Positions 6,133 through 45,870 of a stretch of DNA of 48,165 nucleotides are shown here, piece after piece. The notes beneath the pieces were generated by a model. The model saw only the letters and a list, made by a program, of their open reading frames with translations. It was not told the origin of the DNA and did not search any database. The stretch comes from a bacterium. GTDB lineage: Bacteria > Patescibacteriota > Minisyncoccia > Minisyncoccales > UBA1441. The position numbers were made by a program, and so were the translations under genes. Numbering within the stretch: position 1 is the first letter of the stretch; each line of letters starts with the position of its first letter. The stretch lies in assembly GCA_029559515.1 (NCBI GenBank), contig JAKQBO010000020.1:1-48165 (forward strand). Direction: 5' to 3'.

Positions 6133-8859
6133 TCAGCGACTGTAACGGATGTTGTCCAAGTAAAAGCTGAATTGAGAAGAGTGACGATAAGAATTGAATA
6201 TGATTTTATCGTAGCGGCCCTTGCTTCGCTGTTCGGCCGACAGGTTGGAAACGTCAAAGCTGTGCATTTCAAACGTATCCGCTTCTTGAACATCGGGCAC
6301 CAAATCTAAATCCAGAACCCGGACTATCTGAGCCGGTTTGGTCTTCAATAATAGGTAGAAATAGTTTTGATCAACCGTCATGCTTTGGCAAACATCCTCT
6401 CCCGCGGCCAAGGTTTTGGTAGTGGTTGTCGCAAAACTGTCTTTATCGAGACGAACCAGCTTGGCCGGCGAGGTCCCCAGGCAGATATAGACTGATTCGT
6501 CTAACTCTAATAAGCTGGCCGGACTGTCTTCATTAACAAACAGAGTCTTAACTAAAGTATTGGAAAAATCTCTTTTATCGATGCGAACAATTGTTCCGGG
6601 CCGACCGACCAAGCCTGCATAAATAAATTTTTCGTCCTGAGCCAAGTCAACCACCTTCGCCCCGCCCGTCTCCAGCTCTTTAGTCTCAACAGAATTCAAG
6701 TCTTCCTTGTTAATCCTTAAGATCCTAATGGGCTGAGTGTCTAAGCTGACATAAAGATAATTTTCATCCTGGGTCAGGCTGCCAATGCTATCAATGTTGC
6801 GGGGAAAATCAGTCGCCCCCACCTCTGAAAGATCGCTTTTGTCAATTTTTAGAACGCCCCCGGGCCGATGGGAATAGCCAACATATAAATAGTTTTGATC
6901 AGCTATAATTTTAGCAACTTGATAGTCCTGAAAAGAATTAGAGATGACTGAAAAATCACTCTTATCTATTTTTGCAACGTAGCCCGGGCGAGCTGAAAAG
7001 GTTCCGTAAAGATACTGTTCGTCCTGAGTTAAATCAGCCAAAGCATCAAACCCTTTCGGCAATGTTTTATAAAATACGCTCGAGAAGTCTTTTTTATCGG
7101 CCCGGGCAATAATGCTCGGCGAGGCAGAAAGTCCAATGTAAAGATAATCCCGATCATTGATAATTCGAACCGGATTATCAGCCGAGGCAATAAATTCTTT
7201 CAAAAGCCGGTACCGTTCGAGGTCTGGATCATCAAAGATGGCTTTGTTTAATCGGATAATCTTAGCGGGCTCAGTATCAAAAGCTAAAAACAGATGTTGG
7301 CCCTGACCAACCAGGTCGTAGGCCGGATGATCGCCCGGAGCCAAACTGACAGTGGTCATCAAAAGCGTTTCTTTATCAATCCGGGTCACCTGAGCCGGCG
7401 AAGTGTCAGAAACGAGGTAAATAAAGTTTTGATCCTGGCTAATGCCCCGCCCCGTAGCCGGAATAATTTTGGCCACCGCGGTAAAGTCCTGCTTAGAGAC
7501 ACGCACCATCCTCGCCGGACGGGTGCTCAAAAACAGATAAAGAAAGCTTTCATCCTGGGTCACCCCGTAAGCCGAATCCTCGCCCACGGTTAACGACCCC
7601 CTAGCCAGGCTTTGGTTCTGCTTATTGACTTTAACAATCTGAGTGGGCGAAGTATCGAGCACCGCATAAACATTTTCACTGTCGTTGATTAAAGAAATAA
7701 CTCTGTTGGCTGAAGCCTGCAGGGACAAAACGCTGGTGGTTAAATTACTCTTATCAAGCCGAATTATTTGGGCCGACCCAGTCCCGAGCCCGATGTAAAG
7801 ATAATCTTCATCTTGGGTTAATGAGCTGACGATATTCTGACCGCTGTCCAAAGCAATTGTTCGCGTAGTCACAAAATCGGACTTTGATAATCGAACGATT
7901 TTCCCGGGCGTCGTCTTTAAGCCGACATAGATGTAATTGTCGTCATTGACTAATGAGGCAATCTTATCCTCGCCGACAGCCAGAGTTTTGGTCTCGGCTC
8001 GAGAAAAATCACCCCGGTCGATTCGAATAATTTTTGCCGGACTAGTGTCAAGCCCGATATAGACATACTCGTCGTCCTCATCGATTGCCCGGGCCCGGTC
8101 TTCACCGGAAGAAAGAAAACTTGACTGGCTGAAGAATCCGAGCACTTTTTCGCCCGGCTCGCTTTGATTGATATCAAGCCGAATTTCATTAGCCGTTAAA
8201 AGATCAATCACTCCCAGTTCGCCGAACACGCTAGCTTGATGGCCGTCTCCTTTGATTGAAATATAATTGGCGGCCTGGCCGGCTGTTCGGATATTTTGGG
8301 AAATACTGACTTGAATCTGGTCGGAATCAGAGCTAATGAAAGGATGATCACAATTTTGAATCACCACCTCTTGCGGCCGAGTGCCAGTCCAGGCGATATC
8401 GTGGCCGTCTTCAGAATGGATGCTGATAAAATTTCCTTCGCCCGTTTCGCGAGACGCAAAAACCCGGTACTCTGAACCGTTGTCCTTAGTCTTATAAAAA
8501 TAAGTATAGGTCTCCATAGCCCCTCCCAAGAAGTAGGTCTGAGGATAGAGGGGATCTCTGGGAATGCCACCCGGCAAATATTCTCTTAATTCATCTTCTA
8601 AACCGAGGTCTTCCTCCAGTCGAGCGCCACTATCTCTCTTGGGAAAACTCCCCCGATCAACTCGGTAGGCTTCGAGCGCCTGCCTAATTTGAGCCAAATC
8701 AGCCTCTCGCTGAGCGTCGCGAGCCAGAGCTTGATTGTAGTTAACAACTAAATAGATAGAAACCCCGGCCAAGATCACAACCAAAACTCCGGCCACTACT
8801 TCAACTAGGGTAATTCTAATTTTTTTCTTGGTAGGTGAAGACATAAGCCTTACCGTCAT
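6133..8859 (-). CDS. Giant pilin-like protein (908 aa): GspG/type IV pilin-like N-terminal helix plus 14 tandem ~44-aa beta-propeller-type repeats
   Basis: The N-terminus KKKIRITLVEVVAGVLVVILAG...RDAQREADLAQIRQALEAYRVDRGSFP...YLPGGIPRDP matches the prepilin/pseudopilin architecture. Residues ~255-852 carry 14 repeats of the pattern D-x-x-Y/F-hYhGh-x-T/S-x-P-x-x-IhRhDK-x-DF. Confidence 0.85.
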   Translation of the reverse strand: MTVRLMSSPTKKKIRITLVEVVAGVLVVILAGVSIYLVVNYNQALARDAQREADLAQIRQALEAYRVDRGSFPKRDSGARLEEDLGLEDELREYLPGGIPRDPLYPQTYFLGGAMETYTYFYKTKDNGSEYRVFASRETGEGNFISIHSEDGHDIAWTGTRPQEVVIQNCDHPFISSDSDQIQVSISQNIRTAGQAANYISIKGDGHQASVFGELGVIDLLTANEIRLDINQSEPGEKVLGFFSQSSFLSSGEDRARAIDEDDEYVYIGLDTSPAKIIRIDRGDFSRAETKTLAVGEDKIASLVNDDNYIYVGLKTTPGKIVRLSKSDFVTTRTIALDSGQNIVSSLTQDEDYLYIGLGTGSAQIIRLDKSNLTTSVLSLQASANRVISLINDSENVYAVLDTSPTQIVKVNKQNQSLARGSLTVGEDSAYGVTQDESFLYLFLSTRPARMVRVSKQDFTAVAKIIPATGRGISQDQNFIYLVSDTSPAQVTRIDKETLLMTTVSLAPGDHPAYDLVGQGQHLFLAFDTEPAKIIRLNKAIFDDPDLERYRLLKEFIASADNPVRIINDRDYLYIGLSASPSIIARADKKDFSSVFYKTLPKGFDALADLTQDEQYLYGTFSARPGYVAKIDKSDFSVISNSFQDYQVAKIIADQNYLYVGYSHRPGGVLKIDKSDLSEVGATDFPRNIDSIGSLTQDENYLYVSLDTQPIRILRINKEDLNSVETKELETGGAKVVDLAQDEKFIYAGLVGRPGTIVRIDKRDFSNTLVKTLFVNEDSPASLLELDESVYICLGTSPAKLVRLDKDSFATTTTKTLAAGEDVCQSMTVDQNYFYLLLKTKPAQIVRVLDLDLVPDVQEADTFEMHSFDVSNLSAEQRSKGRYDKIIFNSYRHSSQFSFYLDNIRYSR

Positions 8860-15535: not shown

Positions 15536-16807
15536 TTAAAGCCTTTTCTTAATCAGGCTAACGGCTTGACTGCGCTTAACAAAGCGCTGCTGACCGGTAC
15601 TCATCGTCTTCAAGGTTATGGTGCCATCGAGAGCTTCTTTCTGTCCAATGATCACCGTGTACTTAACGCCCAGGCGATCAGCTCTCTTAAGCTGGGCATT
15701 CAGAGAATTACGGCCAAAGGCTTCAGCGACTTTTACCCCGCGCTGCCTTAACTCCTCAAAAATCTTAATGGCTTCTTTTTTGGCGGCCGGACCAAGTTGA
15801 GCAATAAAAACTTCCGGCTTTTCCCGATAGACGACTCGGTGCCCCGAACTCTTCATGGCGCTGACAATTCGTTCAATGCCGGCTGCCGCTCCGACCGCCG
15901 GGGCCGGCGGCGCCCCCAAAAGCTCAACCAATCCATCGTAGCGGCCACCCCCGACGAGCGCCTTCTTTTCTTCATCGTCCGACTGGACAATCTCGAAAAC
16001 CGTCCGGGTGTAATAATCTAAGCCCCGGACCAAATGAGGGTTCAGGCGATAAGGAATGTTCAGCTCGCCCAGAAGCTCCAGCACTTCTTGAAAGTGCTGG
16101 CGACATTCATCAGATAAATAATCGACCACATGTGGCAACTGTCCGACAATTTCCTGGCAAGCCGGTTCTTTGCAGTCAAGAATCCGAAGCGGATTCCGAG
16201 CCAAGCGGCGGCGGCAATCAACACAAAGCTCAGATTCGCTCTTTTTAAGCTGCTTAACTAAAACCTTCTGATAGGTTTCTCTCTCTCCGGGCCGGCCAAT
16301 CGAATTGATCTCAACCACTAGATTCTTAATCTTTAACTCGGCCAAAAGACGATAAAAGAGGTTGATCACCTGAGCGTCCAGCGCCGCATCGCCACCGCCA
16401 ATAATTTCAAAACCAAATTGGTGAAACTGACGATAGCGGCCAGCCTGGGCCTTTTCGTAGCGGAAAAAGGGGCCCCAATACCAAAGCTTAACTGGCTGAG
16501 GCCAGGTTCTGGCCCCATGTTCTAGATAAAAACGAACAACAGAAGGAGTCCCCTCGGGTCTCAAAGCTAAGACCTCGCCGCTTTTAGTTCTCAGAGTATA
16601 CATTTGTTTTTCAACGATATCGGTGTTGGCCCCGGTGCCTTTTTTAAAAAGCAAAGCGTTTTCTAAAATGGGAAAATCTATTCGGTCAAAACGATAATCT
16701 TTCGCCAGGCGCCGGCAAGCATTTTCAATCCGATAAAAGTAGGCACAATCTTCCGGAGTTAAATCGTGCATTCCCTTCGGGGTTTGGATAAACTCTTCTT
16801 CGGCCAT
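15536..16807 (-). CDS. hisS: Histidyl-tRNA synthetase (423 aa)
   Basis: It has class II motifs (RYRQFHQFGFEIIG, GGGRYDGL) and a C-terminal anticodon-binding domain. Confidence 0.95.
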   Translation of the reverse strand: MAEEEFIQTPKGMHDLTPEDCAYFYRIENACRRLAKDYRFDRIDFPILENALLFKKGTGANTDIVEKQMYTLRTKSGEVLALRPEGTPSVVRFYLEHGARTWPQPVKLWYWGPFFRYEKAQAGRYRQFHQFGFEIIGGGDAALDAQVINLFYRLLAELKIKNLVVEINSIGRPGERETYQKVLVKQLKKSESELCVDCRRRLARNPLRILDCKEPACQEIVGQLPHVVDYLSDECRQHFQEVLELLGELNIPYRLNPHLVRGLDYYTRTVFEIVQSDDEEKKALVGGGRYDGLVELLGAPPAPAVGAAAGIERIVSAMKSSGHRVVYREKPEVFIAQLGPAAKKEAIKIFEELRQRGVKVAEAFGRNSLNAQLKRADRLGVKYTVIIGQKEALDGTITLKTMSTGQQRFVKRSQAVSLIKKRL

Positions 16808-16810
16808 AGA

Positions 16811-17353
16811 TTAAGGCTTAATGACGTTAATCCGGTTTAAGGGCCAAAGCCTCAAAACCGCCCGGCCGATCAGGTTCTCAGCCGGCAAGTGTCCCCAGAA
16901 ACGAGAGTCGTAAGAGCGATCACGATTGTCGCCCAAAACAAAGTATTGGTCCTCGGCTAAGGTAACCGAGAAGTTCCGGTAGGCAGTTGCTTGAGAATAG
17001 TGGTCGTCGAAGAAAAACTGATCCCCCTCCACGGGAGTAATTAAAATCTGCTGATCAACGGTCTCCAGTTTTTCACCCGGTAAGCCGACCACTCTTTTAA
17101 TAAAACGCCGCGAAGGGTCGGTCGGCGCATAGAAGATAACCACTTCGCCCCGCTCCGGAGGGCGAAAGCGATAACTAATCTGGTCGACAATTAAATAATC
17201 CCCGTCGTAAAAACTAGGCTCCATCGAGGAGCCATCGACGACAAAGGGCTGGAAGAGAAAGTATCGAATGGGGACGACAATCAACAAGGCCAAAATGATC
17301 ACCTCAATCACCTCCCACCAAAAAGAAAAAAAGCTCTTTAAAGAGTCTCTCAT
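16811..17353 (-). CDS. lepB: Signal peptidase I (180 aa)
   Basis: It has a TM anchor, the catalytic Ser box GSSMEPSF, the Lys box KRVVGLPGE, and GDNRDRSYDSRFWG. Confidence 0.9.
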   Translation of the reverse strand: MRDSLKSFFSFWWEVIEVIILALLIVVPIRYFLFQPFVVDGSSMEPSFYDGDYLIVDQISYRFRPPERGEVVIFYAPTDPSRRFIKRVVGLPGEKLETVDQQILITPVEGDQFFFDDHYSQATAYRNFSVTLAEDQYFVLGDNRDRSYDSRFWGHLPAENLIGRAVLRLWPLNRINVIKP

Positions 17354-17380: not shown

Positions 17381-17388
17381 ATTATAAT
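17381..17388. promoter_or_regulatory. Palindromic ATTATAAT that supplies a TATAAT -10 element on both strands (lepB leftward, pth rightward)
   Basis: ATTATAAT is its own reverse complement. It lies in the 75-nt divergent intergenic region. Confidence 0.35.
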
Positions 17389-17413
17389 GGAAATTTCATC
17401 AATAATCAAGTCG

Positions 17414-17422
17414 TGCTATAAT
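17414..17422 (+). promoter_or_regulatory. Extended -10 promoter TGcTATAAT, 6 nt upstream of the pth ATG (leaderless mRNA predicted)
   Basis: TG is at 17414-15 and TATAAT at 17417-22. The ATG is at 17429. Confidence 0.5.
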
Positions 17423-17428
17423 GCTCTT

Positions 17429-17965
17429 ATGATCCTGATTGTTGGCCTGGGAAACCCCGGGCGAAAATATCGAAACACCCCTCATAACCTCGGCTTTGAA
17501 ACAGTTGACCGGCTGCGCAAAAAACACCAATTGCCCCGATTTCAGCGAGGAGAAATGGCCTTGATTTCGGCCGGTAAAATTGCCGAGCAATCAGTTCTTT
17601 TAGCCAAGCCCCTGACCTTTATGAATGAATCTGGCCGAGCCGTAGCCGCCCTGGCTAAGAGACATCAACTGGCGCCTGGCCAGATCTGGCTGATTCACGA
17701 TGAAGCTGATCTCCCCTTGGGCCAGATTAAGACTAGCCTTAACCGTAGCGCTGGCGGACACAAGGGCGTCTCTTCGGTTTATCAACAGCTCCAGACCCGC
17801 GAACTGCTTCGTTTCCGCCTGGGAACCGCTACCGAAGATAAATCCAACCTTAAAGACTTCGTCTTGAGGCCCTATCGCCGGATCGAGAGAGGTCGGGCCA
17901 AGACTATGGTCGAACAGGCAACCGAGTTAATCGAAGCCACTTTAATCGAAATATCGCCCAAATAA
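17429..17965 (+). CDS. pth: Peptidyl-tRNA hydrolase (178 aa)
   Basis: The sequence MILIVGLGNPGRKYRNTPHNLGF is the canonical Pth N-terminus. The upstream ATG at 17387 overlaps a TATAAT box and adds a non-conserved extension. Confidence 0.9.
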   Translation: MILIVGLGNPGRKYRNTPHNLGFETVDRLRKKHQLPRFQRGEMALISAGKIAEQSVLLAKPLTFMNESGRAVAALAKRHQLAPGQIWLIHDEADLPLGQIKTSLNRSAGGHKGVSSVYQQLQTRELLRFRLGTATEDKSNLKDFVLRPYRRIERGRAKTMVEQATELIEATLIEISPK

Positions 17966-17975
17966 TTATTCGATT

Positions 17976-18002
17976 AAAAAAAGGCCCGGAGGCCGGGTTT
18001 TT
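17976..18002. terminator. Bidirectional intrinsic terminator (pth on plus strand, candidate sRNA on minus strand)
   Basis: A GC-only hairpin (GGCC-CGGA-GGCC / CCCGG-AGG-CCGGG) is flanked by A7 on the left (U7 on the minus strand) and by T5 on the right. Confidence 0.65.
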
Positions 18003-18134
18003 GCCTTTGAGTCTATCTGCAAGCCACCAGAACACAATTGGGATTACCCAACGAACCCTGGCATTTAAAGAGATCCGAGTACAAGGAGGGATTACTCTTC
18101 TCTCTACTTGCAGACAGACTCAAAAGCAAAAACC
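17976..18134 (-). ncRNA. Candidate structured small RNA (~159 nt), family not recognised
   Basis: The locus has these parts:
- A consensus promoter ends 6 nt upstream.
- A 28-bp closing stem pairs 18134-18107 with 18023-17996. Its only two non-Watson-Crick positions are G.U pairs on the minus strand.
- Two internal hairpins lie within the stem (18105-18069 and 18061-18027).
- The terminator is GGCC-UCCG-GGCC followed by U7.
- No credible ORF is present. Confidence 0.6.
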
Positions 18135-18140
18135 GATGCC

Positions 18141-18168
18141 ATTATAGCCAAAAAAGACAGGTTGTCAA
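18141..18168 (-). promoter_or_regulatory. Perfect sigma70-type promoter TTGACA-16 nt-TATAAT driving the candidate sRNA
   Basis: The minus strand reads TTGACA (18168-18163), ACCTGTCTTTTTTGGC, then TATAAT (18146-18141), then GGCATC, then the G that begins the stem. Confidence 0.7.
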
Positions 18169-18170
18169 TC

Positions 18171-18199
18171 TTGGTCTTTTAGTTAAATGGTGCTACATT
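18171..18199 (+). promoter_or_regulatory. Candidate topA promoter TTGGTC-17-TGcTACATT, 7 nt upstream of ATG 18207
   Basis: The extended -10 TG is at 18191-92 and TACATT at 18194-99. The promoter is back to back with the sRNA promoter. Confidence 0.4.
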
Positions 18200-18206
18200 G
18201 TCAGCG

Positions 18207-20216
18207 ATGAAACTGGTTATCGTCGAATCACCAACTAAGTCAAAAACCATAGAGAAAATTCTGGGCTCCGATTATCGTTGCCTAGCGAGCTTGGGTCATG
18301 TCCGCGATTTACCCAAGAGCAAGCTCGGCATTGATTTAGAAAATGATTTTGAGCCCCAGTACGTCATTCCAACCAAGGCGCGTAAAACAGTTAATCAATT
18401 AAAAAAAGAGGTCGCTTCGGCCGATCAGGTCATTCTGGCCGTCGATGAAGATCGAGAAGGCGAGGCCATTGCCTGGCACCTAGCCCAGGCTCTGAATTTG
18501 AAAGATTTTGAGAGAATTACCTTTCATGAAATCACCCCTGAGGCAATCAAAGAAGCCCTGAAGAATCCGAGAGATATCGATTTAAATTTAGTGAATTCCC
18601 AACAGGCTCGAAGAATCTTAGATCGATTAGTCGGTTACCAGCTCTCGCCTTTTCTCTGGAAAAAAGTAATGAGAGGTCTTTCGGCTGGCCGAGTTCAGTC
18701 AGTTGCTGTTCACTTAATAGTTGAAAGAGAAAAAGAAATTGAGGCTTTCAAGCCCCAAGAATATTGGACGGTCAAAACAGTTCTCGAAAAAGATAAAAAA
18801 ACCTTTGAGGCTACACTGGTTAAAATTAAAAACAAGAAAATTGACCAACTGGGGCTAGATAAAGAAAAAGCCCGTCAGGCAGCTCAGCAACTGAAAAAAT
18901 CCGAACCGATTATTGCCCAGCTTCAGCAGAAAGAAACCCGGCGCCATCCCTCGCCGCCTTTCACCACCAGCACCCTGCAGCAAGAAGCCGGCCGAAGGCT
19001 GAATCTCTCCAGCCGTCAGACCATGCGGTTAGCCCAGAATCTTTACGAAAAGGGTTATATTACCTACCACCGAACCGATTCGCTTAATATGGCTGAATCG
19101 GCCCTAAAACAAGCTGAAGATTATTTAAAAAAAGAAATTGGTCCGGATTACTGGCCGGGCCAGCCGCGCTTTTATCGCAACCAAGATAAATTAGCCCAGC
19201 AGGCTCATGAGGCAATCCGGCCAACTGATATTTGGCAACATCCTGACCGGATCAATCTGACGCCGCCGGCCCTAAATCTTTACCGCTTAATCTGGCAAAG
19301 AACTTTGGCCTCGCAAATGTCGTCAGCCGTTCTCATTAAAACTTCAGCCGAGATAGTCGCTGGCGATTATTCTTTAAAAGCCAACGGACAGATTATAAAG
19401 TTTGACGGTTTTTTGAAAATATATCCGAGTGCTCTAAAAGAAAACCCGCTGCCCGACCTTAAGGCCAAAGACAAATTAACTGTTAAAAAGACTTTAGCGG
19501 AACAACACTTTACTCAGCCACCGGCCCGATATTCGGAGCCGGCTCTGGTAAAAGCGCTCGAAAACCTGGGCATTGGCCGACCTTCAACCTATGCGCCAAT
19601 TATTTCAACCATTCAGGAGCGCGGCTATGTTCAGAAAAATCCAGAAAAAAGACTTCAGCCGACTGAAATTGGCCGCATTGTTGACGAATTACTCAGCCAA
19701 CATTTTCCAGAGATTGTTGATGTCCGGTTCACCGCGAAAATGGAGGAAGAGTTAGACCTGATTGCTCAGGCTAAAAAGAAATGGCCAGAAGTGATCAAAA
19801 GCTTTTATCAGCCTTTCTCTAAGAATCTTGAAGACAAGTACCAATCAGTTGAGAAGAAAGATTTAACTGAAAAGACCGACCGCCTTTGCCCCGAATGTCA
19901 AAGCCCATTAATTATTAGGATGGGGCGTTATGGCAAATTTTACGGCTGCTCGAACTTTCCGAAGTGTCGCTTTACCGAGCCGTTTAAAAACAATAAAACC
20001 GGCGTTCATTGCCCAGAGTGTCAGACCGGCGAGATTGTCGAAAAAAAGAGTCGCCGAGGGATCTTTTACGCCTGCAACCGTTATCCTGACTGCCGATTCG
20101 CCTTATCAGATAAACCGACCGGTGAAAAATGCCCGGAGTGCTCCGCCTTGCTTGTTAAAAATAAGGAAGGTAAAATAAAGTGCAGTCAGAAAAACTGCCA
20201 TTTTCAGAAAGATTAA
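18207..20216 (+). CDS. topA: DNA topoisomerase I (669 aa from ATG 18207)
   Basis: It has a Toprim N-terminus (MKLVIVESPTKSKTIEKILG) and the active-site Tyr region (GYITYHRTDS). Three C-terminal CxxC...CxxC zinc ribbons are present. The ORF-track start at 18198 is a TTG lying inside the predicted -10 element. Confidence 0.95.
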   Translation: MKLVIVESPTKSKTIEKILGSDYRCLASLGHVRDLPKSKLGIDLENDFEPQYVIPTKARKTVNQLKKEVASADQVILAVDEDREGEAIAWHLAQALNLKDFERITFHEITPEAIKEALKNPRDIDLNLVNSQQARRILDRLVGYQLSPFLWKKVMRGLSAGRVQSVAVHLIVEREKEIEAFKPQEYWTVKTVLEKDKKTFEATLVKIKNKKIDQLGLDKEKARQAAQQLKKSEPIIAQLQQKETRRHPSPPFTTSTLQQEAGRRLNLSSRQTMRLAQNLYEKGYITYHRTDSLNMAESALKQAEDYLKKEIGPDYWPGQPRFYRNQDKLAQQAHEAIRPTDIWQHPDRINLTPPALNLYRLIWQRTLASQMSSAVLIKTSAEIVAGDYSLKANGQIIKFDGFLKIYPSALKENPLPDLKAKDKLTVKKTLAEQHFTQPPARYSEPALVKALENLGIGRPSTYAPIISTIQERGYVQKNPEKRLQPTEIGRIVDELLSQHFPEIVDVRFTAKMEEELDLIAQAKKKWPEVIKSFYQPFSKNLEDKYQSVEKKDLTEKTDRLCPECQSPLIIRMGRYGKFYGCSNFPKCRFTEPFKNNKTGVHCPECQTGEIVEKKSRRGIFYACNRYPDCRFALSDKPTGEKCPECSALLVKNKEGKIKCSQKNCHFQKD

Positions 20217-20300
20217 GCCGGGGTGGTGGAACTGGCAGACACGCATGTCTCAAACACATGTGGACGCAAGTCCTTGAGGGTTCGAGTCCCTCCCTCGGCA
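20217..20300 (+). tRNA. tRNA-Leu (anticodon CAA)
   Basis: The fold has acceptor stem GCCGGGG...CCTCGGC-A, anticodon stem-loop CATGT-CTCAAAC-ACATG, a long variable arm and T-arm GAGGG-TTCGAGT-CCCTC. It starts 1 nt after the topA stop codon. Confidence 0.9.
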
Positions 20301-20343
20301 CCGGCAGGCCTTTTTTAGAATAGACTTATATAAAGCTGAGGTT

Positions 20344-20369: not shown

Positions 20370-20430
20370 GTGTTATTACCTAAATCAGATGAGTTCTTTT
20401 TAACCGCTCACTGAAAGGAGGCGAATGGTT

Positions 20431-21039
20431 ATGGAGATTTTAAAGCCGTATTTCGTCATTGAAGATGAGGTTAAAGGAGAGGAGGTCTTAAAAAAGCTAG
20501 AGGCATACGCCCGAACTTGTTACAAATCGGAAGATAAAATCACTTCCGATTCGGCCGGCCCCCTGATCAAGAAATTAATTCAGCGGGGCCACGAGTCTAT
20601 ACTCGAGCACGAAAAGATCACCGTTCGGGTAATATGCGATCGGGGGGTGAGTCACGAAATAGTTCGCCATCGAATCGGCTCCTACACCCAGGAGTCGACG
20701 CGTTATTGCAACTATCAGTCTCGCGGCATCAAAGTAATCAAGCCCTTCTTCTTTGACCGAGAAAAGTATCGCCTTTGGGAGGAAACTATGGCCACCTGCG
20801 AAAGCGCCTACAATAAGTTAATCGAGCTTGGGGCCTCGCCCCAAGAAGCCAGGTCGGTGCTCCCCAATTCTCTCAAAACTGAAATTGTGATCACCTACAA
20901 TTTGAGAGAGTGGCGTCACTTTTTTAAGATGAGGTGCTCGAAAAAAGCTCATCCTCAGATGAGGCAGGTCGCCGGACCCCTGCTCCGAGAGTTTAAGAAG
21001 TTGATCCCGATTATTTTTGATGACATCTCGGAAGAGTAA
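20431..21039 (+). CDS. thyX: FAD-dependent thymidylate synthase ThyX
   Basis: It carries the ThyX signature RHRIGSYTQESTRY. A strong SD (AAGGAGG, 20415-20421) lies 9 nt before ATG 20431. The alternative ATG at 20425 is only 3 nt from the SD. Confidence 0.9.
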   Translation: MEILKPYFVIEDEVKGEEVLKKLEAYARTCYKSEDKITSDSAGPLIKKLIQRGHESILEHEKITVRVICDRGVSHEIVRHRIGSYTQESTRYCNYQSRGIKVIKPFFFDREKYRLWEETMATCESAYNKLIELGASPQEARSVLPNSLKTEIVITYNLREWRHFFKMRCSKKAHPQMRQVAGPLLREFKKLIPIIFDDISEE

Positions 21040-34997: not shown

Positions 34998-36635
34998 TTA
35001 ATTAAATGGACTTTCTTCCGGCATCTGGCTGACCTCATTAACCCCCAAGGCTGCAAAGGAAAGAACCTGGTTAGTCCAGAGATCGCGGCCGCGGCCCTCG
35101 GCTGGCCCAATCAGCGGACTTTGGAGCGTCTCTATGCTTTGTGGCTGGACCACCAGTTGAAAGGCTAAGATAGCCTGTTGGTCTGGCTCCAGATGGCCGA
35201 CATCCCAAACCAGGCGGTCGCCCTCGCCTTGCAAACTCAAGCGTCCAGCCTCTTCATCTGGAAAAAGACGGTCGGCAAACATCGTCTCCGAAGGCAAATC
35301 AACCGCGACCCAAACATCATCAACCTCGTTATAAGTATTCGTCAGCCGCCAAAAGACGGTGTAGAGAGTCGTTTCGCCTAATTGAAGCGGAATTGGTCCC
35401 TCGTCTTCAAAAAACTCATCCCCAGCATAAACCTCTTGAACCAGCTCGAGCTGCGAATTGATTTTAGTAGCAAAGATATTCCGCATACTGCCGATCTCGA
35501 CCTCGATTTCAACTTGCGGACTTAGACTCCGAATCGGCCACTCCTCTTTCAAATCAATCCAAAAATCAACTTGCCCCTCCTCGTCCCGATCGAGAAACCT
35601 TAGCTCCGGAATAACCCGCCAGTCCCAAAGAATCGAACTGTGCCCGGGTTGATAAGTGGCCCGAGTGGCCCGAAGAGTATTTAAATCAAAGTAGTCGCCC
35701 TTGAGATAAATCGTTATGAACTGGTTTTCCAGGGGACGTTCGGTAACGTTTCGGAAATATATTTGATAATGTAATGAGTCGCCGGGGTTGGCAACATAAT
35801 CAAAGGAGCCGTTAATCTGCAAAGCCAGGTGAAGGGGTGCATCAGAAATTTCAATCTTCTGGCTGATTCGCTTCAGCGGCGCAAAGCCCTGTTCGGTCCA
35901 AATTCCCAGCTGAGCGCTTAAGACCACCTCTGGAACGTCTGGACTGGCCTGCCCGGTCAGGCGGATTCGTCCGCCGTCTTGAGATACTAAAAAGGGAATC
36001 TGCCATTCGCCCGGTTCGTTAGACCCGACTGGAGAGCTTTCTTTTAATTCAAAGCCTCGGGTGGCCGAAAATCTAATGCCCACATTTTCCAGAGTTTCAT
36101 CTAGAGCGGAAAAATAATTTAAGGAAAATTGAAAGTCTTCTCCCGGAGCGGCCGTTTGAGGTAAGCTGAACTCTAGCGTTAATGGAACTTCCGAGATTGT
36201 CGTAGTCGCCGAAGTATCGGCGCTATAGTAAACGCGCAACCCTTCGACCTGATAATCCAGCCTGGCCTTAGCAGTTAAAACTTCTTTTTCTTGCCCAAAA
36301 ACTTTGGCCCGGAAAGTAAACTGCTGTTCCTGGCCTGGATAAATATCTTGCTCTAGCTTTTGGCGGACCATGCTTTCGTCGGGATCAATCGGCCGGACAT
36401 AGCGAGGGAATTCAAACATTAGCTCGGCGTTCGATAAGGCAAAATTGCCCTGGTTCTTAATTCTCAAGGTATAGTCTACCGACTCCCCGACCACAATCGA
36501 TTCCGGAGCAATTAGCTCCAAAAAAACATCACCGCGAGAAGCAACGTTCTTCTGGTAAAGAAACCAGATTACTACGGCTAAAGCCACCGCTGCTATCAGA
36601 AGAAAAACTAAAATAATCTTCGTAATCTTGGACAT
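34998..36635 (-). CDS. Membrane-anchored extracellular protein with ~4 CARDB/DUF11-like beta-sandwich modules (545 aa)
   Basis: An N-terminal TM helix is followed by recurring segments of the type G-E/D-x-h-x-Y-x-h-x-h-x-N (VGESVDYTLRIKNQGN, PGDSLHYQIYFRNVTE, LGETTLYTVFWRLTNT). The function is unknown. Confidence 0.75.
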   Translation of the reverse strand: MSKITKIILVFLLIAAVALAVVIWFLYQKNVASRGDVFLELIAPESIVVGESVDYTLRIKNQGNFALSNAELMFEFPRYVRPIDPDESMVRQKLEQDIYPGQEQQFTFRAKVFGQEKEVLTAKARLDYQVEGLRVYYSADTSATTTISEVPLTLEFSLPQTAAPGEDFQFSLNYFSALDETLENVGIRFSATRGFELKESSPVGSNEPGEWQIPFLVSQDGGRIRLTGQASPDVPEVVLSAQLGIWTEQGFAPLKRISQKIEISDAPLHLALQINGSFDYVANPGDSLHYQIYFRNVTERPLENQFITIYLKGDYFDLNTLRATRATYQPGHSSILWDWRVIPELRFLDRDEEGQVDFWIDLKEEWPIRSLSPQVEIEVEIGSMRNIFATKINSQLELVQEVYAGDEFFEDEGPIPLQLGETTLYTVFWRLTNTYNEVDDVWVAVDLPSETMFADRLFPDEEAGRLSLQGEGDRLVWDVGHLEPDQQAILAFQLVVQPQSIETLQSPLIGPAEGRGRDLWTNQVLSFAALGVNEVSQMPEESPFN

Positions 36636-36705: not shown

Positions 36706-37452
36706 CTAAGATTTAATTAGGCTAGAAGACTGGTCTTGGCGGACCGAATCGAGAAAAAATCGCGAAACTTTCTCCAGATTTTTTTGATCTTCTGGACTAG
36801 TCTTAATCCGGGCTAAGCAAGCTTTATCTTTTTCCGCAATTAAACGGAGAATTTTGATAGTATTAGGCGAGATCTTTTCTAAAAAATCCTCATCCTTCCG
36901 GCAGCCCGGACAGACTATTCCGTCCTGGGCAATTAAATAGCAGACTTCAGATTTAAGGTGATTTGAACAGCGGGCGCATTTTTGAAGGTCGATCTGATAG
37001 CCCCAGCTGTTCATTAGCGTCCAAAGAAAATAATAATAAAGGCGTTGATAGTGCTTCTTCATCAGATTCAGGGCATGCAGCGCCCCCAGATAGAGAAACC
37101 AAGTGTTGTCATCTGGCAGACGCCAAGGCGTTAGCGCTTCAACGTCTTGGGTCATTTTCCGAGCCACTATAAACCTCGCCCAGTCTCGGCTTAGGTTAGC
37201 AAACGGTGTTTTCGGTCGAGCCGCGGTAATAATCGGCTGGCGATAACCAAAAACCAATTCAATCTCGCTCCAGCTAAAGAGCCCTAAGCCACCCCTTAAT
37301 TTTGAAAGAATTTTTCTCTCCCCACGAGCGACAGCTTTAAGCTTGCCGAAGCGATCAGTTAATAAAATAATCTGGCTGTCGGCTTCGCTGATTGCTTGGC
37401 GGCCTAGTACCACGGCTTCCGTCTTCTCTTTAAGAAACATGATCGGGTTCAA
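36706..37452 (-). CDS. recO: DNA repair protein RecO (248 aa)
   Basis: It has an OB-fold N-terminus (EAVVLGRQAISEADSQIILLTDRFGKLKAVARG) and a Cys4 zinc finger (CARC...CPGC). Confidence 0.85.
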   Translation of the reverse strand: MNPIMFLKEKTEAVVLGRQAISEADSQIILLTDRFGKLKAVARGERKILSKLRGGLGLFSWSEIELVFGYRQPIITAARPKTPFANLSRDWARFIVARKMTQDVEALTPWRLPDDNTWFLYLGALHALNLMKKHYQRLYYYFLWTLMNSWGYQIDLQKCARCSNHLKSEVCYLIAQDGIVCPGCRKDEDFLEKISPNTIKILRLIAEKDKACLARIKTSPEDQKNLEKVSRFFLDSVRQDQSSSLIKS

Positions 37453-40400
37453 TGGCTAAAAAGAGCTTCTGGCCGTCTAAAACAACTTCTTGGCTTTCGG
37501 CCGGTGGCCGGCCCTCGGGCGATTTTAAATCAATAGCTTGATTATTTTTCTCAATCTCAGAACGATATTTTTCGAGAAGCTGAACCGGCTCTTCGGCTCC
37601 CCAATAATAGACAGTAGCCGGATCGGACGGCTTCAGGCCGGCTTTTTTTCTCAGATTCTTGATCGTCCGGACAACCTCTCTAATTTGGCCTTCTTCTTCT
37701 AAGTCTTTGCTCAACCGGGTGTCGACAGCGAGCTTTAGGCTGCCTTCTTCAGCCTGAACCCAGCCGGACTCTTCTTTAAGGCTTTCTTCAAAAGATACCC
37801 GGCGCACGTTTATCTCTTGGCTAATTAACTCATTTAAATCTTGATTTTTTAAGGCTGGACCCTGAACTCTCAGTTCGGCCAAGGGCTGCCTCACTTTTAG
37901 GCCGGCTTTAGCGCGGGCCTGCAAAGACAATCGGACAATTTCTCTGACCCGAGTCATCTCTGCTTCTATTTCTGGATTAATTAAATCTTCTTGAGGTTCA
38001 AAGTAGTCCTGTAGGTGAACCGAAATTGATTGGTTCTGGGACCTTAAAGAGCGATAAACTTTTTCACTAATAAAGGGGGTTAACGGAGCCATCAAATTGC
38101 TAATACTCAAAAGAAAGTATCGCAACATCTTGGCTGCAGTTTCTGTTTCTGGGCCCGGGTTTTGCAGGCGGGGTCGAGAGCGCCGAATATACCAATTAGA
38201 AAAATCATCGATTAGGTCTACGAAAAGACGGGCGACTCGATCGACCCGATAAGCCTCCATTTCTTGAATCAACTGTCGGCCCACCGCATGAAGACGAGAA
38301 AGCATCCATTGGTCAAGCAGGTTCGGGCTGAATGGAATTTGATCGTCCAATTCAATTTCCGGAGCATAAGTCAAATAGAACGAGGCGCAGTTATCGAAGG
38401 TGCTAATTATCTTCTGCATCACCTCGTTGACCTTGTCTTCGGCCACCACGTAGTTGCCGCCCAGCGAAGACTGATTCAGAAAATAAAAACGTAGCGCGTC
38501 AGCTCCATAACGATCAAGGATGACTTGAGGCGGTTGATAGTTCTTGACGTGCTTAGATAGTTTTTCGCCGCTCTCGGAGAGAATTAGACCGTGGGCAATA
38601 ACGTTTTTAAAGGCTGGTTGGTTTTGACCCAGGCCGTCATCTTTCAAGGTTAAGGCAGTCGCCAGAACGTGCAAAGTGTAAAACCAGCCCCGAGTTTGCT
38701 CTAAAGCTTCAGTAATAAAGTCAGCTGGAAAAAATTCTTTTGTCTGTTCCTGATTTTCAAACGGATAATGAAACTGAGCGTAGGGCATCGCGCCTGATTC
38801 GTACCAACAATCAAAAACCTCTTCGACTCTCTTCATCTTTTCTCCGGAAGGCGAATAAAATTCAATCTGGTCGATATAGGGACGATGAAAGTCAATCCGA
38901 CCCTCTTCATTGAAGGGCATTTGAGCAAATTTCAACTCTCGGACTTCAGCAAAATCAAGGCCTAATTCAGAGCGGCGGGCGGTATGCTCTTTTTCAGTTA
39001 AACCGAGACAGGCCGACTCCAAGTATCGAAGCGGACCCCGATGGCCGATAATTAAGACATTGGCTCCCTGATACTTTTGATCCTGGTCCTTTAAAAACTG
39101 ATAGATTCTCTGCCTCACAGCTAATCCGGTCTCACCACCTTCCGGGGTTCGGGTTAAGAACTCATCCGAAGAGTCAAAGAATTGGTAATATTCTTTGATC
39201 GATTTTCCGTTAGCGACACCAAATTGATGCTCACCCAGTTCCGAATAAAACCGAGGCTCAATCCCTAAAATTTCCCCAACTATTTCCGCCGTCTGCCGGG
39301 CTCGAGTTAAATTAGAAGAAAGAATAACATCGATTTTGTTCTCCTTTTTCAGCTTCTTGGCCGTAGCTAGAACCTGCTTCCGGCCCAATTCTGTTAATGG
39401 ATAGCCGTTATCGCGATCAATTAAAACTTTCTGAACATTGCTTTCAGCTTCACCGTGCCGCATCAGCCAATAGCGATTATCACTGAACTTCTGCTGCCTT
39501 AAGTCTTCACGCGAACCAATCACAACCGTCTCGCCTTTTTCTGATTGCCAGATCGGGATAGGCGCTCCCCAGTAGCGGTTTCGCGATACGGCCCAATCAC
39601 GGGCCCCCTCTAGCCATCGACCGAAACGACCGTTCTTAATATGTGCGGGAACCCAATTGATTTGCTGGTTATTCTTAACCAATTGATCGCGAAATTTTTC
39701 AACGGCGATATACCAGCTAGTAACCGGATAATAGACCAAACGTTGATCACAACGCCAACAAAAGGGATAACTGTGCTCAATTTCCAAAGTCCGGTAGAGA
39801 AACTGGCGTTTTTTAAGATCCTCTAAAATAGCCTGGTCGGCCACCCAAACCGGCTGGCCCGCCCCGGGCAAATTATAGCCGGTGGCCATACGGCCGCTGC
39901 GATCAACTGTAATCTTGAGAGGCAGATTCTGTTTCTTAGCCACCTCCATGTCCTCTAGCCCAAAGGCGGCTAGGTGAACTAAGCCGGTGCCTTCTTCTGT
40001 CGAAACAAAGTCAGTTTCCACCACTCGATAATCCCGGCCATTGCTAGGCGGAACATCATAGAGCGGTTGATAAGCCTGCCCGATCAGCTGTCGGCCTTTA
40101 AAAGTTTCAATCTGCTCAAAGTCTTCTTCAATCTCCGATAGCCGCGACTCGGCCAGAATTAAAAATTCCGAGCCGGTCTTAATTTTTACATAGTCGATTT
40201 CCGGATTAATCGCCACCGCAAAATTAGCCGGCAAAGTCCAGGGAGTAGTCGTCCAAATCAAAAGAGAGGTTTTCTCTTGATCAATCAGCGGAATTTTGAC
40301 GAAGACTGAAAGATCTTTAATGTCGCGATAGGCTCCGGGCTGATTCAGCTCAAAATTAGACAAAGGGGTCTCGCAGCGCGGACAATAGGGAGCCGTGCGG

Positions 40401-40921
40401 TAGTCCTGATAGACCAACCCCTGCTGATAAAGACGCTTAAAGATCCACCAAATGCTCTCGGTGTATTCCGGGTCAATCGTCGCGTAATAGTTGTCATAAT
40501 CAGCCCAGCGGCCTAATCTCTTCAGAATTTGCTCAAATTCATCTAAGCAACGAAAAACTAAATTACGGCAGGTCTGGTTAAATTTATCAATACCTAACTG
40601 CTCAATGTCCGCCTTGCTCTTCTGATTCAGCTCTTGTTCGGCCAAATTCTCCAGGGGTAGACCGTGGCAGTCCCAGCCCACCCGACGAGGCACATACCGG
40701 CCTCTCATTGTCTGATAACGAAGAACAACGTCTTTAATGGTTGACGGGAGAAGGTTGCCGTAATGAGGCTGGCCGGTGGCGAAGGGCGGACCATCATAAA
40801 AAGAGAATAGTGGCCGGCCTTGGCGCTGAGCAACACTCTGCTCAAAAACCCGGTTTTGCTCCCAAAACCTAAGAATCTCCTCCTCTGATTTAACAATATT
40901 ATTTTTTTCTTCTGGCATCAC
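37430..40921 (-). CDS. ileS: Isoleucyl-tRNA synthetase (type 2) with an inserted histidine-phosphatase-superfamily domain (1163 aa)
   Basis: It has PPFATGQPHYGN (HIGH), a CP1 editing region (TTTPWTLPAN), WAVSRNRYWGAPIPIW and KLSKH (KMSKS). Residues ~481-672 form an RHG...H phosphatase module. Confidence 0.95.
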   Translation of the reverse strand: MMPEEKNNIVKSEEEILRFWEQNRVFEQSVAQRQGRPLFSFYDGPPFATGQPHYGNLLPSTIKDVVLRYQTMRGRYVPRRVGWDCHGLPLENLAEQELNQKSKADIEQLGIDKFNQTCRNLVFRCLDEFEQILKRLGRWADYDNYYATIDPEYTESIWWIFKRLYQQGLVYQDYRTAPYCPRCETPLSNFELNQPGAYRDIKDLSVFVKIPLIDQEKTSLLIWTTTPWTLPANFAVAINPEIDYVKIKTGSEFLILAESRLSEIEEDFEQIETFKGRQLIGQAYQPLYDVPPSNGRDYRVVETDFVSTEEGTGLVHLAAFGLEDMEVAKKQNLPLKITVDRSGRMATGYNLPGAGQPVWVADQAILEDLKKRQFLYRTLEIEHSYPFCWRCDQRLVYYPVTSWYIAVEKFRDQLVKNNQQINWVPAHIKNGRFGRWLEGARDWAVSRNRYWGAPIPIWQSEKGETVVIGSREDLRQQKFSDNRYWLMRHGEAESNVQKVLIDRDNGYPLTELGRKQVLATAKKLKKENKIDVILSSNLTRARQTAEIVGEILGIEPRFYSELGEHQFGVANGKSIKEYYQFFDSSDEFLTRTPEGGETGLAVRQRIYQFLKDQDQKYQGANVLIIGHRGPLRYLESACLGLTEKEHTARRSELGLDFAEVRELKFAQMPFNEEGRIDFHRPYIDQIEFYSPSGEKMKRVEEVFDCWYESGAMPYAQFHYPFENQEQTKEFFPADFITEALEQTRGWFYTLHVLATALTLKDDGLGQNQPAFKNVIAHGLILSESGEKLSKHVKNYQPPQVILDRYGADALRFYFLNQSSLGGNYVVAEDKVNEVMQKIISTFDNCASFYLTYAPEIELDDQIPFSPNLLDQWMLSRLHAVGRQLIQEMEAYRVDRVARLFVDLIDDFSNWYIRRSRPRLQNPGPETETAAKMLRYFLLSISNLMAPLTPFISEKVYRSLRSQNQSISVHLQDYFEPQEDLINPEIEAEMTRVREIVRLSLQARAKAGLKVRQPLAELRVQGPALKNQDLNELISQEINVRRVSFEESLKEESGWVQAEEGSLKLAVDTRLSKDLEEEGQIREVVRTIKNLRKKAGLKPSDPATVYYWGAEEPVQLLEKYRSEIEKNNQAIDLKSPEGRPPAESQEVVLDGQKLFLAIEPDHVS

Positions 40922-42535: not shown

Positions 42536-42982
42536 ATGGAATTAGCTAATAATAAAAAGGCATTTTTTGATTATGAAATTCTAGAGAAAATAGAGGCTGG
42601 TTTGGCTTTAACCGGAGCTGAGGTTAAATCAGCCAAGCTGGGCCGCGTTAGTCTAAAAGGCTCTTATGTTAGCAATCTCGGAAATCGTCTTTATTTAACC
42701 GGAGCGACTATCTCAGCCTATCAACCGGCCAACCAGCCGGCCGACTACGATGCCACCCGCCCCCGCCCCTTGCTATTTAAAAAAAAGGAGATAAGCTACT
42801 TGATTGGCAAGATAAAAGAAAGGGGCTTGACGCTAGTGCCTTTAAGAATGTATACTAAAAAGAACTTGATCAAGCTAGAGGTTGGTCTGGCTAAAGGAAA
42901 AAAGAAATTTGATAAACGCCAACAGATCAAGCAACGTGAAGATGAGCGCCGGATTAGAAGATCTTTAAAAGGCGAAGAATAA
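42536..42982 (+). CDS. smpB: SsrA-binding protein SmpB (148 aa)
   Basis: It has a typical SmpB sequence with a basic C-terminal tail. It lies immediately upstream of the tmRNA gene. Confidence 0.95.
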   Translation: MELANNKKAFFDYEILEKIEAGLALTGAEVKSAKLGRVSLKGSYVSNLGNRLYLTGATISAYQPANQPADYDATRPRPLLFKKKEISYLIGKIKERGLTLVPLRMYTKKNLIKLEVGLAKGKKKFDKRQQIKQREDERRIRRSLKGEE

Positions 42983-42985
42983 CAC

Positions 42986-43278
42986 GGGGACGAACGGCTT
43001 CGATAGAATCTCGAGGCGCGCGGTGCGGGTTAAGGTGCCGGATCCTTATTAAACTTTCGGCAAACTACAAGTGTCAACACACTTCGGGGTTTAACCCCCG
43101 CCTACGCTTACGCCTGAAAGTTTCAGGATAAGCTTTCATAGTTTTTTTGCCTCCCTTTGCGGAGGAATCTGTTTCTGAAGCGCCCTAAACGCTTCTTGAA
43201 GACCCTCTTGAGGGCTAAGCCCGTAGATGCTGCTCGTCATTGATTTTCTAGACGTGGGTTCGATTCCCACCGTCTCCA
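42986..43278 (+). ncRNA. ssrA: tmRNA (SsrA), short form ~293 nt
   Basis: The 5-prime GGGGACG pairs with the 3-prime CGTCTCC and includes the G3.U70 Ala identity pair. The T-arm is GTGGG-TTCGATT-CCCAC with discriminator A. CCA is not encoded. It lies 3 nt after the smpB stop. Confidence 0.85.
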
Positions 43279-43286
43279 CTTTTACA

Positions 43287-43850
43287 ATTAACCAATCCAC
43301 AAAAATAGATCAGTATTTTATCAACAATGCAATTGAGCAAGGTTTGAGGTGGGCTAAGAAGTCGCCGGATCAGATAAGATTAGTCGGCCCGGATGGAAAG
43401 CAGCTCGGCGTCTTCAATCTGGAACAGTCTTTAAATAAGGCTCGAGAAGAAGGCCTCGACTTGGTTTTAATCACGGCCAAAGCCAATCCGCCGGTTTGTC
43501 GCATCATCGAGGCCGGCAAATTCCTTTATCAGAAAAAGAAGGAAAAGAAAAAGACCGACTCCGTTGAGTCGAAAAAGCTTAAGATCAAGTTCAACACCTC
43601 AGAGCATGACATGGAGACCCGAGTCAACCAGGCCAAAAAGTTCTTAGCCAAAGGTAACCGGATCCAGGTGATTATGATGCTTCGCGGCCGAGAAAATGCC
43701 TTTCGGCCTCAGGCCGAAGATAAGATGAAACATTTTTTGGCAATGATCGAATCGGCTTGTCCGGTTAAGATAGAAAACCAAACTTCGCGCAAGTCAAAGA
43801 TAATTCAGTACGAGGTTTCGCCTAGTTCCCCTAAAAAACATGAAAGCTAA
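43287..43850 (+). CDS. infC: Translation initiation factor IF-3 (non-AUG start; exact start uncertain)
   Basis: It has the IF3 N-domain (QIRLVGPDGKQLGV...EEGLDLVLI...NPPVCRIIEAGKFLYQKKK) and C-domain. No in-frame ATG lies between the tmRNA end and the conserved region. Candidate starts are ATT 43287, ATA 43305, ATC 43320 and ATT 43332. Confidence 0.8.
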   Translation: MNQSTKIDQYFINNAIEQGLRWAKKSPDQIRLVGPDGKQLGVFNLEQSLNKAREEGLDLVLITAKANPPVCRIIEAGKFLYQKKKEKKKTDSVESKKLKIKFNTSEHDMETRVNQAKKFLAKGNRIQVIMMLRGRENAFRPQAEDKMKHFLAMIESACPVKIENQTSRKSKIIQYEVSPSSPKKHES

Positions 43851-45768: not shown

Positions 45769-45824
45769 AAAATTAAAGATAATTTTTAATAATTTTGACC
45801 TTTATGGGTAAACCCATTGCTCTT

Positions 45825-45833
45825 ATTCTAGCA
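45825..45833 (-). promoter_or_regulatory. Extended -10 promoter TGcTAGAAT upstream of the 88-aa ORF (56-nt leader)
   Basis: The minus strand reads TGCTAGAAT (45833-45825). This is the third copy of this 9-mer in a promoter-appropriate position. Confidence 0.4.
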
Positions 45834-45870
45834 AAATTATCTCTTTTTTCCAGCCTCAGAAACTAGGTAG

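Follow-up and report, generated by a model that had tools for sequence, protein, structure and literature searches.

The trans-encoded alpha-r14/NfeR1 small RNAs (sRNAs) of alpha-rhizobia, to which AbcR1/2 are related, carry the ultraconserved C/U-rich anti-Shine-Dalgarno (anti-SD) motif CCUCCUCCC in the loops of hairpins whose stems vary in sequence, and silence mRNAs by covering their ribosome-binding sites (PMC10746234). In RsaE/RoxS of the Firmicutes, C-rich loops pair with Shine-Dalgarno (SD) sequences, which is followed by cleavage by RNase III (PMC6158497); the loop motifs of other staphylococcal C-rich-loop sRNAs also pair with SD or G-rich sequences. Here we analyse an sRNA gene in positions 1 to 48,165 of contig JAKQBO010000020.1, which comes from a bacterium of the Patescibacteria or candidate phyla radiation (CPR); this whole stretch of 48,165 nt is called the window. 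The gene (17976-18134, minus strand) lies between pth and topA, and its RNA is predicted to expose an anti-SD sequence at the tip of a long helix. There is little doubt in our view that the gene itself is real. The RNA is closest in kind to the anti-SD-loop sRNAs; its closed-end, long-helix architecture and its SD-poor genome are distinctive, and it founds a CPR sRNA family without a match in Rfam 15.

With the alpha-r14/NfeR1 sRNAs it has in common the pattern of a conserved loop on varying stems, and no similarity in sequence or at the level of models. It has one anti-SD loop whereas they have three, its 5' and 3' ends pair in a 26-29 bp helix, its place next to dprA/topA is conserved over deep lineages, and it occurs in CPR bacteria almost without SD-led genes, in contrast to the SD-rich alpha-proteobacteria. 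Since a single loop carries (U)CCCUCCUU and no model matched at E <= 10, membership in this family was rejected; alpha-r14/NfeR1 is a functional analogue only (PMC10746234). The likeness to RsaE/RoxS and the other staphylococcal sRNAs lies in the proposed action of the loop. RsaE/RoxS is also Hfq-independent and unusually well conserved among sRNAs, which we list as further likenesses. It differs by its CCCC-repeat motif and by having no terminal closing helix. The RNA described here matched no Rfam model of this group and does not have the duplicated C-rich motifs that define it, and was therefore not assigned to it. Other likenesses exist to 6S RNA, to the 4.5S RNA of the signal recognition particle (SRP) and to Y RNA, namely a strong promoter, a long terminal helix, a rod-like stable RNA and a widely conserved single-copy gene of the core genome. 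However, unlike 6S RNA it has no central bubble, unlike SRP RNA no domain IV or GNRA loop, and unlike Y RNA no Ro/Rsr context.

The sRNA promoter consists of TTGACA (-35, 18163-18168) and TATAAT (-10, 18141-18146) on the minus strand with a 16-nt spacer. It matches sigma-70 at 12/12 positions, the sole such match within the 3 kb scanned, and its -10 box ends 6 nt before the predicted first base, G18134. From there the predicted transcript of ~159 nt runs to the end of a U-tract at 17976, where GGCC-UCCG-GGCC plus U7 (17976-17994, minus strand) forms an intrinsic terminator that also closes pth on the plus strand. Expression and exact ends of the sRNA are predicted from these signals; the match of the covariance model to the window covers 17994-18136 (152 bits). 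TTGACA was invariant in all homologues with a read or scanned promoter region, and at equal distance the relatives have TATAAT, TAGAAT, TAAAAT or TATACT as the -10 box. The promoter scores were 12/12 for the window and for locus L094, 11/12 for L114 and L168, and 10/12 for L046; the L083 copy showed no clear promoter upstream. The terminators of the relatives are GC-rich hairpins unrelated in sequence and followed by a U-run, always at the end of the helix.

The minus strand folds with -81.4 kcal/mol (z = -9.3; 0/200 shuffles were as good) and the plus strand with -61 kcal/mol (z = -6.0). The overall fold is a three-way junction of a closing helix and two hairpins, followed by the terminator. 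The closing helix corresponds to an inverted repeat (18107-18134 / 17996-18023), the longest in the window, whose 28-nt arms have two non-Watson-Crick positions, both of them G.U on the minus strand. The minimum free energy structure adds one U.G pair, so that the helix reaches 29 bp (5' arm 18106-18134; 3' arm 17996-18024). Hairpin 1 (18069-18105) is made up of a basal stem, a purine-rich internal loop, a 5-bp apical stem and an 11-nt loop, AUCCCUCCUUG (18092-18082). Its internal loop is GAA/GGA in the window and GAAA/AGUA in most relatives. Hairpin 2 (18026-18062) has a basal stem of 7-8 bp with conserved G.U pairs, an apical stem of 5-7 bp and a UAAU loop.

A preliminary description of this DNA had already proposed the consensus promoter, the terminator common with pth, the 28-pair closing stem from G18134 with its two G.U pairs, hairpin 1 (18105-18069) with its 11-nt loop, and the apical UUGGG-UAAU-CCCAA of hairpin 2. 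All of these were recovered, hairpin 2 with the bounds 18062-18026. It had further pointed to the octamer GUAAUCCC in both hairpins. The repeat is present in the window, but it is absent from the relatives, which carry CAGUCCC (hairpin 1) and GUAAUCUC (hairpin 2) at its sites; the repeat is therefore a coincidence.

According to the same description the RNA was an orphan. This was wrong, as the family recurs in several CPR lineages. TopA-anchored scans covered 160 loci (designated by L and a number) from GTDB genomes and JGI metagenomes. With the RNA as the query, nhmmer and blastn gave a single match in these loci, the near-identical strain L081, which is 99.5% identical to the window over 8 kb. 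In the others, TopA was at most 59% identical and no sequence-level match to the RNA was found. Since sequence searches reached L081 only, covariance models were needed for the distant members. The L081 copy differs from the window by G18134 to A, C17997 to T and an AG deletion, changes that leave the final two helix pairs weaker and are uninformative on the strand. A large protein collection supplied TopA relatives at 99, 96, 89, 83, 75 and 72% identity, and contigs were fetched for the 89, 83, 75 and 72% steps. Contig Ga0116141_10000903 and the Logan runs SRR32456876 and ERR6088238 are sources of the relatives. Along each fetched contig the genes run ftsA, hisS, lepB, pth and, after a gap of ~215 nt, topA, and the same minus-strand RNA occupies every one of these pth-topA gaps. 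In total this syntenic gap contains the RNA at eight more distinct loci, whose TopA shares 99 to 72% identity with that of the window; the homologues in all are 12 further distinct three-way-junction sequences and three hairpin-type loci. The nucleotide identity of the RNA to its relatives (70-92%) is about equal to or above that of topA and lepB and exceeds that of pth by 8-19 points.

The near relatives were aligned with MAFFT (alignment A2, 11 distinct sequences). The consensus fold computed by RNAalifold was the same three-way junction, with compensatory double changes in 17/48 pairs. In A2 98.3% of the cells were paired, in contrast to 33-47% when the partners were slid by 1-3 columns, and the observed covariation was matched by 0/500 shuffles. 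When the three distant members described below were added and the sequences fitted to the model (alignment A4, 14 sequences), compensatory changes were seen in 34/48 pairs. The 26 aligned pairs of the closing helix account for 7 compensatory pairs in A2 and for 15 in A4. In hairpin 1, 4/5 apical and 2/3 basal pairs are compensatory in A2, the apical stem changing from GAGUA/UACUC to GGACA/UGUCC across the near relatives, and an apical pair of hairpin 2 changes from G-C to A-U. Conservation and covariation in relatives, which had been sought as a check on the preliminary description, are thus abundant in both alignments.

The alignments also bear on the strand. The G.U pairs at A2 columns 22-123 (closing helix) and 81-107 are kept in 11/11 near relatives. 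On the plus strand a conserved G.U would be an A.C mismatch; therefore the minus strand is the RNA strand, and the argument drawn earlier from the G.U pairs of the window is borne out by the comparative data. The covariance model scored 33-43 bits on the plus strand and 146-164 bits on the minus strand, on which the model itself had been built. A further claim, that no open reading frame (ORF) of more than six codons starts inside the RNA, did not hold: a GTG-initiated ORF of 43 codons (18035 to 17904, minus strand) begins within it. In the 72%-identity relatives this ORF hits a stop after three codons; its interruption in relatives indicates that it is not coding. Judged by its promoter, terminator, covariation and conservation and by the absence of a conserved ORF, the element is an independent structured non-coding RNA gene.

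Covariance model R1 detected three further members with E-values of 1e-9 to 1e-13 at loci where TopA is 52-55% identical: in L114 (1928-2076), L094 (848-998) and L083 (186-323), each on the strand opposite to topA. The gene order at the distant loci is pth, RNA, dprA, topA; the lineage of the window has lost dprA. The RNA gene is directly adjacent to dprA-topA or topA in most loci, and in L094 a 180-aa ORF without Pfam match lies between it and dprA/topA. The distant copies retain the long closing helix, hairpin 2 with a different loop, whose sequence is not conserved, the GAAA/AGUA internal loop, and CCCUCCU or CCUCCUU as the loop core. The GAAA/AGUA loop sits beneath the apical stem in hairpin 1 and is similar to loop-E or sarcin-ricin motifs. 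Inspection of non-coding gaps revealed three more loci (L025, L136 and L046) at which a simpler RNA is located and oriented in the same way. In L025 and L136 it is a hairpin of ~108 nt with the apical loop CUUUCCUCCUAG, and its minus-strand fold is more stable than the plus-strand fold by 23-39 kcal/mol. In L046, where it was found by a stem-extension scan, it is a hairpin of ~80 nt with the loop AACCCCUCCUAAC behind TTGACA-17-TAGATT. The gene upstream of the L046 copy is without Pfam match, and no pth was detected at this locus; hence dprA/topA on the opposite strand is the constant neighbour.

The refined model R2, run against 159 other topA-anchored loci (L001-L080, L082-L160), gave nothing beyond L114, L094 and L083, and the hairpin-type model R3, built from L025 and L136, gave no further members. 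A match of L041 to R3 (E = 0.05) was rejected as an unrelated tandem repeat; it consists of two tandem copies of an ~88-nt unit (UAAUCUAGUGAGCGAGUGGAACGCGAAA...) at 2480-2680, downstream of a gene, and folds with -80 kcal/mol. No convincing homologue was present in the pth-downstream gaps of L109, L108, L013, L100, L034 and L023, and nothing new came from scanning non-coding gaps for CCUCCU loops by regex plus folding. The pth-dprA gap of L109 (1782-1990) contains three CCUCC(UUA) motifs on the plus strand, which on the minus strand read as strong SDs before tiny ORFs; a perfect 17-bp hairpin follows pth there. This arrangement may be an alternative solution for the locus. As the refined models found no further copies in ~150 other loci, the family is patchy near topA within the CPR. 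The lineages in which it occurs are Patescibacteria/CPR of the Parcubacteria (Paceibacteria) type.

The loop of hairpin 1 contains UCCCUCCUU (18083-18091, minus strand) and with it CCUCCUU, the sequence of the 16S anti-SD, as had been recognised before. UCCCUCCUU is invariant in 11/11 near relatives, though 4/5 flanking stem pairs co-vary. The CCUCCU core was found in every member, be it near, distant with a three-way junction (L114, L094, L083) or of the hairpin type (L025, L136, L046), and unpaired CCUCCU at the tip of a long closed-end helix is the only sequence common to all three architectures. In the window (AAUCCCUCCUU), L083 (GAUCCUCCUU) and L114 (ACCCUCCUU) the flanks of the loop resemble the 16S tail beyond CCUCC. 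The loop of the 72-75% clade, CAGUCCCUCCUU, is a poorer match to the tail. Hairpin 2 holds a second UCCC; it is paired and lacks conservation.

Among the 35 long ORFs of the window, thyX (20425-21039, plus strand) alone has a full AGGAGG within 20 nt before the listed start, and AAGGAGGGA-like words are depleted (6 observed vs 18 expected). This bears out the earlier view that most genes here are SD-poor or leaderless. The strong SD of thyX is AAAGGAGG (20415-20427), with AAGGAGG at 20415-20421. Among the 35 initiation regions, that of thyX is the best duplex partner of the loop (-12.8 kcal/mol vs -9.7 kcal/mol for the next). Its SD is kept as (A/U)AAGGAGG or GAGGAGG in five relatives (L162, L167, L168, L169, L171), in which the neighbouring genes have no SD.

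At gathering thresholds, Rfam 15 identified the tmRNA (transfer-messenger RNA) and four tRNAs only in the whole window, and tRNAs only in the loci of eight relatives. In a permissive scan of 17900-18250 the best match was Phe_leader with 29.5 bits against a threshold of 55, a score explained by the generic long stem plus terminator. 6S, SRP, Y RNA and RNase P gave no match in this interval even at E <= 10. There is thus no confident Rfam match, which agrees with the preliminary description, whose author did not recognise the family; its exclusion of SRP, 6S and RNase P RNA is likewise in accord with these negatives and, for SRP and 6S RNA, with the absence of their motifs. Literature searches returned no paper describing the sRNA family. 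The three-way junction and GUAAUCCC suggested a 5S rRNA-like or SRP Alu-like RNA, which was rejected for want of an Rfam match and because the motifs are wrongly placed and the octamer is unconserved. A hammerhead ribozyme was rejected as well; the L114 sequence CUGAUGAG...CGAAA that suggested it lies inside the co-varying closing helix and is unconserved. Blastn matches of 13-14 nt between the 5' arm GGTTTTTGCTTTTG and the N-terminal coding region of other topA genes are a coincidence, the topA of the window itself pairing over ~8 bp only.

The gene lies in a housekeeping neighbourhood, in which hisS (15536-16807, minus), lepB (16811-17353, minus), pth (17387-17965, plus) and topA (18207-20216, plus) were identified by Pfam, as was thyX. 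The start codon of topA was corrected from TTG at 18198 to ATG at 18207. A putative divergent topA promoter was read by eye at 18171-18207 (plus strand): TTGGTC, 17 nt and TGcTACATT, an extended -10 at 18191-18199. Being an 8/12 match, it is under the threshold of the scan tool, and we grade it accordingly as a candidate; the block is conserved in relatives. As the ATG follows only 7 nt after the end of the putative -10, topA is probably leaderless. The preliminary description had the sRNA -35 overlapping the upstream edge of the topA promoter region. The sRNA promoter lies back-to-back with the putative topA promoter, with 2 bp between the two -35 boxes on opposite strands in the window. In L114 the ATG of dprA overlaps the sRNA -35.

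A possible interpretation is that the RNA is an independently transcribed, stable, trans-acting sRNA of a new family, whose anti-SD loop pairs with SD sequences and blocks translation of the rare SD-led mRNAs. This is the reading that we prefer, at a confidence just short of even. Transcription from the near-consensus sigma-70 promoter is predicted to start at the first base of the closing helix, which would pair the 5' and 3' ends of the RNA, with the intrinsic terminator directly after it. The terminal helix, together with hairpin 2 where present, would form a rigid scaffold shielding both ends from exonucleases, and the apical loop of hairpin 1, presenting unpaired CCUCCU(U), would be the working part. 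By antisense pairing with GGAGG-type SD or other G-rich sequences the loop could keep ribosomes from binding to the few mRNAs that are SD-led in a genome which is SD-independent or leaderless for the rest. In the window, thyX alone is a candidate target of this sort, and the loop-mRNA duplex may then be cleaved by RNase III. Because of the SD-poor genome, thyX as the best partner and the known sRNA precedents, antisense occlusion of rare SD-led or G-rich initiation regions is rated the likeliest mechanism, a tentative choice for which we would not claim even chances. In the few mRNAs that have retained the use of a ribosome-binding site, translation is probably under the control of this sRNA.

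Several observations weigh against this interpretation. The proposal of thyX as a target holds as far as its strong SD and its rank as the best predicted partner are concerned, but not with regard to specificity: the match is just the 7-nt canonical SD, a generic complementarity, and in the relatives no consistent co-variation was found between the flanks of the thyX SD and those of the loop. thyX is thus a candidate target only. L161 and L165 carry the RNA though thyX is absent from their neighbourhood. Loci with and without the RNA are alike in their SD-poverty; since all CPR loci are SD-poor, SD usage cannot discriminate the presence of the RNA. Furthermore, the position of the RNA is kept at ~50% TopA identity, whereas sRNAs that act by base pairing typically turn over more quickly; this suggests a role that is more of a housekeeping or protein-linked kind. 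For simple antisense action a near-perfect helix of at least 26 bp, kept by covariation, is superfluous, and the GAAA/AGUA internal loop of most members looks like a protein- or RNA-docking site.

The positional conservation, the long helix and the GAAA/AGUA loop fit a decoy of the 16S rRNA 3' tail at least as well. In this main alternative, which we consider unlikely, the loop copies (A/G)AUC..CCUCCUU and would titrate a tail-recognising factor instead of pairing with mRNAs, while additional docking surface would come from the long helix and from the loop-E-like internal loop. Candidate factors are the KH domain of Era, YbeY or other 3'-end maturation nucleases, bS21 or bS1, and IF3. The tail-like loop flanks of the window, L083 and L114 argue for such a decoy, as does the missing co-variation with a specific target. 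Yet no partner protein is linked in the neighbourhood, and no affinity of pth, dprA or topA for the loop sequence is known; moreover CAGUCCCUCCUU of the 72-75% clade matches the tail less well and the window's own subclade has GAA/GGA in place of GAAA/AGUA. A wider version, possible though doubtful, is that of a lineage-wide CPR RNA which, borne on a long double-stranded scaffold, imitates the 16S 3' tail and acts as a global competitor or decoy, soaking up SD sequences or an anti-SD-tail factor and thereby tuning SD-dependent versus leaderless or SD-independent initiation. The three-way-junction and plain-hairpin forms would then be variants of one ancient RNA tied to dprA-topA.

The paired ends, the strong promoter and the deep conservation of a single-copy gene beside core genes could also be those of a divergent housekeeping RNA (a 6S-like regulator of RNA polymerase, a Y-RNA-like or an SRP-related RNA) that has drifted past the reach of the Rfam models. 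We regard this as improbable given the Rfam negatives reported above. For 6S RNA, both internal hairpins co-vary and hence there is no 6S-type open bubble, nor any RF00013-type match; for bacterial SRP RNA, the GNRA loop and the domain IV motifs are absent from the sequence and RF00169 did not match; for bacterial Y RNA (Yrn/YrlA), no TROVE protein is encoded in the window. In addition, the hairpin-type members consist of a stem and a CCUCCU loop, which is the core of none of these families. Very improbable is a purely DNA-level role in cis, in which the RNA is incidental, the divergent promoter is coupled to the dprA/topA promoter via supercoiling or competition for RNA polymerase, and the bidirectional terminator insulates pth. 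topA promoters are supercoiling-sensitive. This, the position of the RNA gene upstream of dprA-topA or topA and on the other strand at all loci found, the proximity of the -35 boxes in the window and the overlap in L114 would suit such a coupling. However, it cannot explain the compensatory pairs of A4, the conserved strand-specific G.U or the conserved loop on variable stems; promoter coupling could be an added role, not the sole one. A mobile or defence repeat has next to no probability, its sole support being the long terminal inverted repeat. The closing-stem arm has no other copy in the window at <=3 mismatches. The check for a miniature inverted-repeat transposable element (MITE) showed the RNA to be single-copy in the window and in each locus, without MITE signs; as it also keeps a fixed syntenic position from 99 down to ~50% TopA identity, it is not a MITE. 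Among the ORFs of the window Pfam detected no reverse transcriptase, transposase, cas or Ro-type (TROVE) gene, and the sRNA gene has no link to reverse transcriptase, cas genes or phage. A retron msr/msd RNA was rejected because the minus strand downstream is pth antisense and no window ORF has a reverse transcriptase domain, and a phage-carried RNA because an IMG/VR pattern scan gave two chance matches, both rejected by the covariance model.

Other genes of the window are of the housekeeping type as well (clpB, htrA, comEC, nrdDG, ftsZA, several aminoacyl-tRNA synthetases, smpB, tmRNA, infC and rplT). Downstream of topA, the first base of tRNA-Leu(CAA) (20217-20302, plus strand) directly abuts the topA stop codon (20216); the 3' half of this tRNA holds UCCCUCCCU, which is like the sRNA loop and not complementary to it. 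An isoleucyl-tRNA synthetase-like ORF of 1163 aa (37430-40921, minus strand) contains a full His_Phos_1 domain (residues 485-647, E = 3.7e-33) within the class I synthetase core; such a fusion or insertion is unusual. The tmRNA gene (42986-43281, plus strand; listed region 42536-43281) starts a few bases past the smpB stop (42982). The IF3 ORF as called (43227-43850) overlaps the 3' end of the tmRNA; the true infC start is therefore probably further downstream or non-canonical. Two long ORFs on the minus strand are sparsely annotated, one of 908 aa (6133-8859) with a weak DUF6923 repeat as its sole Pfam annotation and one of 545 aa (34998-36635) without Pfam match. A second inverted repeat (45761-45858; 26-nt arms, 77% complementary, 46 nt between them) adjoins tRNA-Arg (45870-45942).

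Regulatory RNAs of the CPR are essentially uncharted, and our literature searches found no described CPR sRNA family. With its full set of gene signals and its strong covariation, the RNA is therefore a solid entry point to regulation in these bacteria. Alignment A4 and model R2 could seed a new Rfam family and would improve the annotation of a recurrent "empty" intergenic region by dprA/topA in Patescibacteria. The sole conserved motif of the RNA is the anti-SD sequence, in genomes whose sampled loci almost never use SD sequences. This raises the question of whether an anti-SD-like RNA controls the residual SD-led translation, for example of thyX, or titrates a factor that reads the 16S tail.

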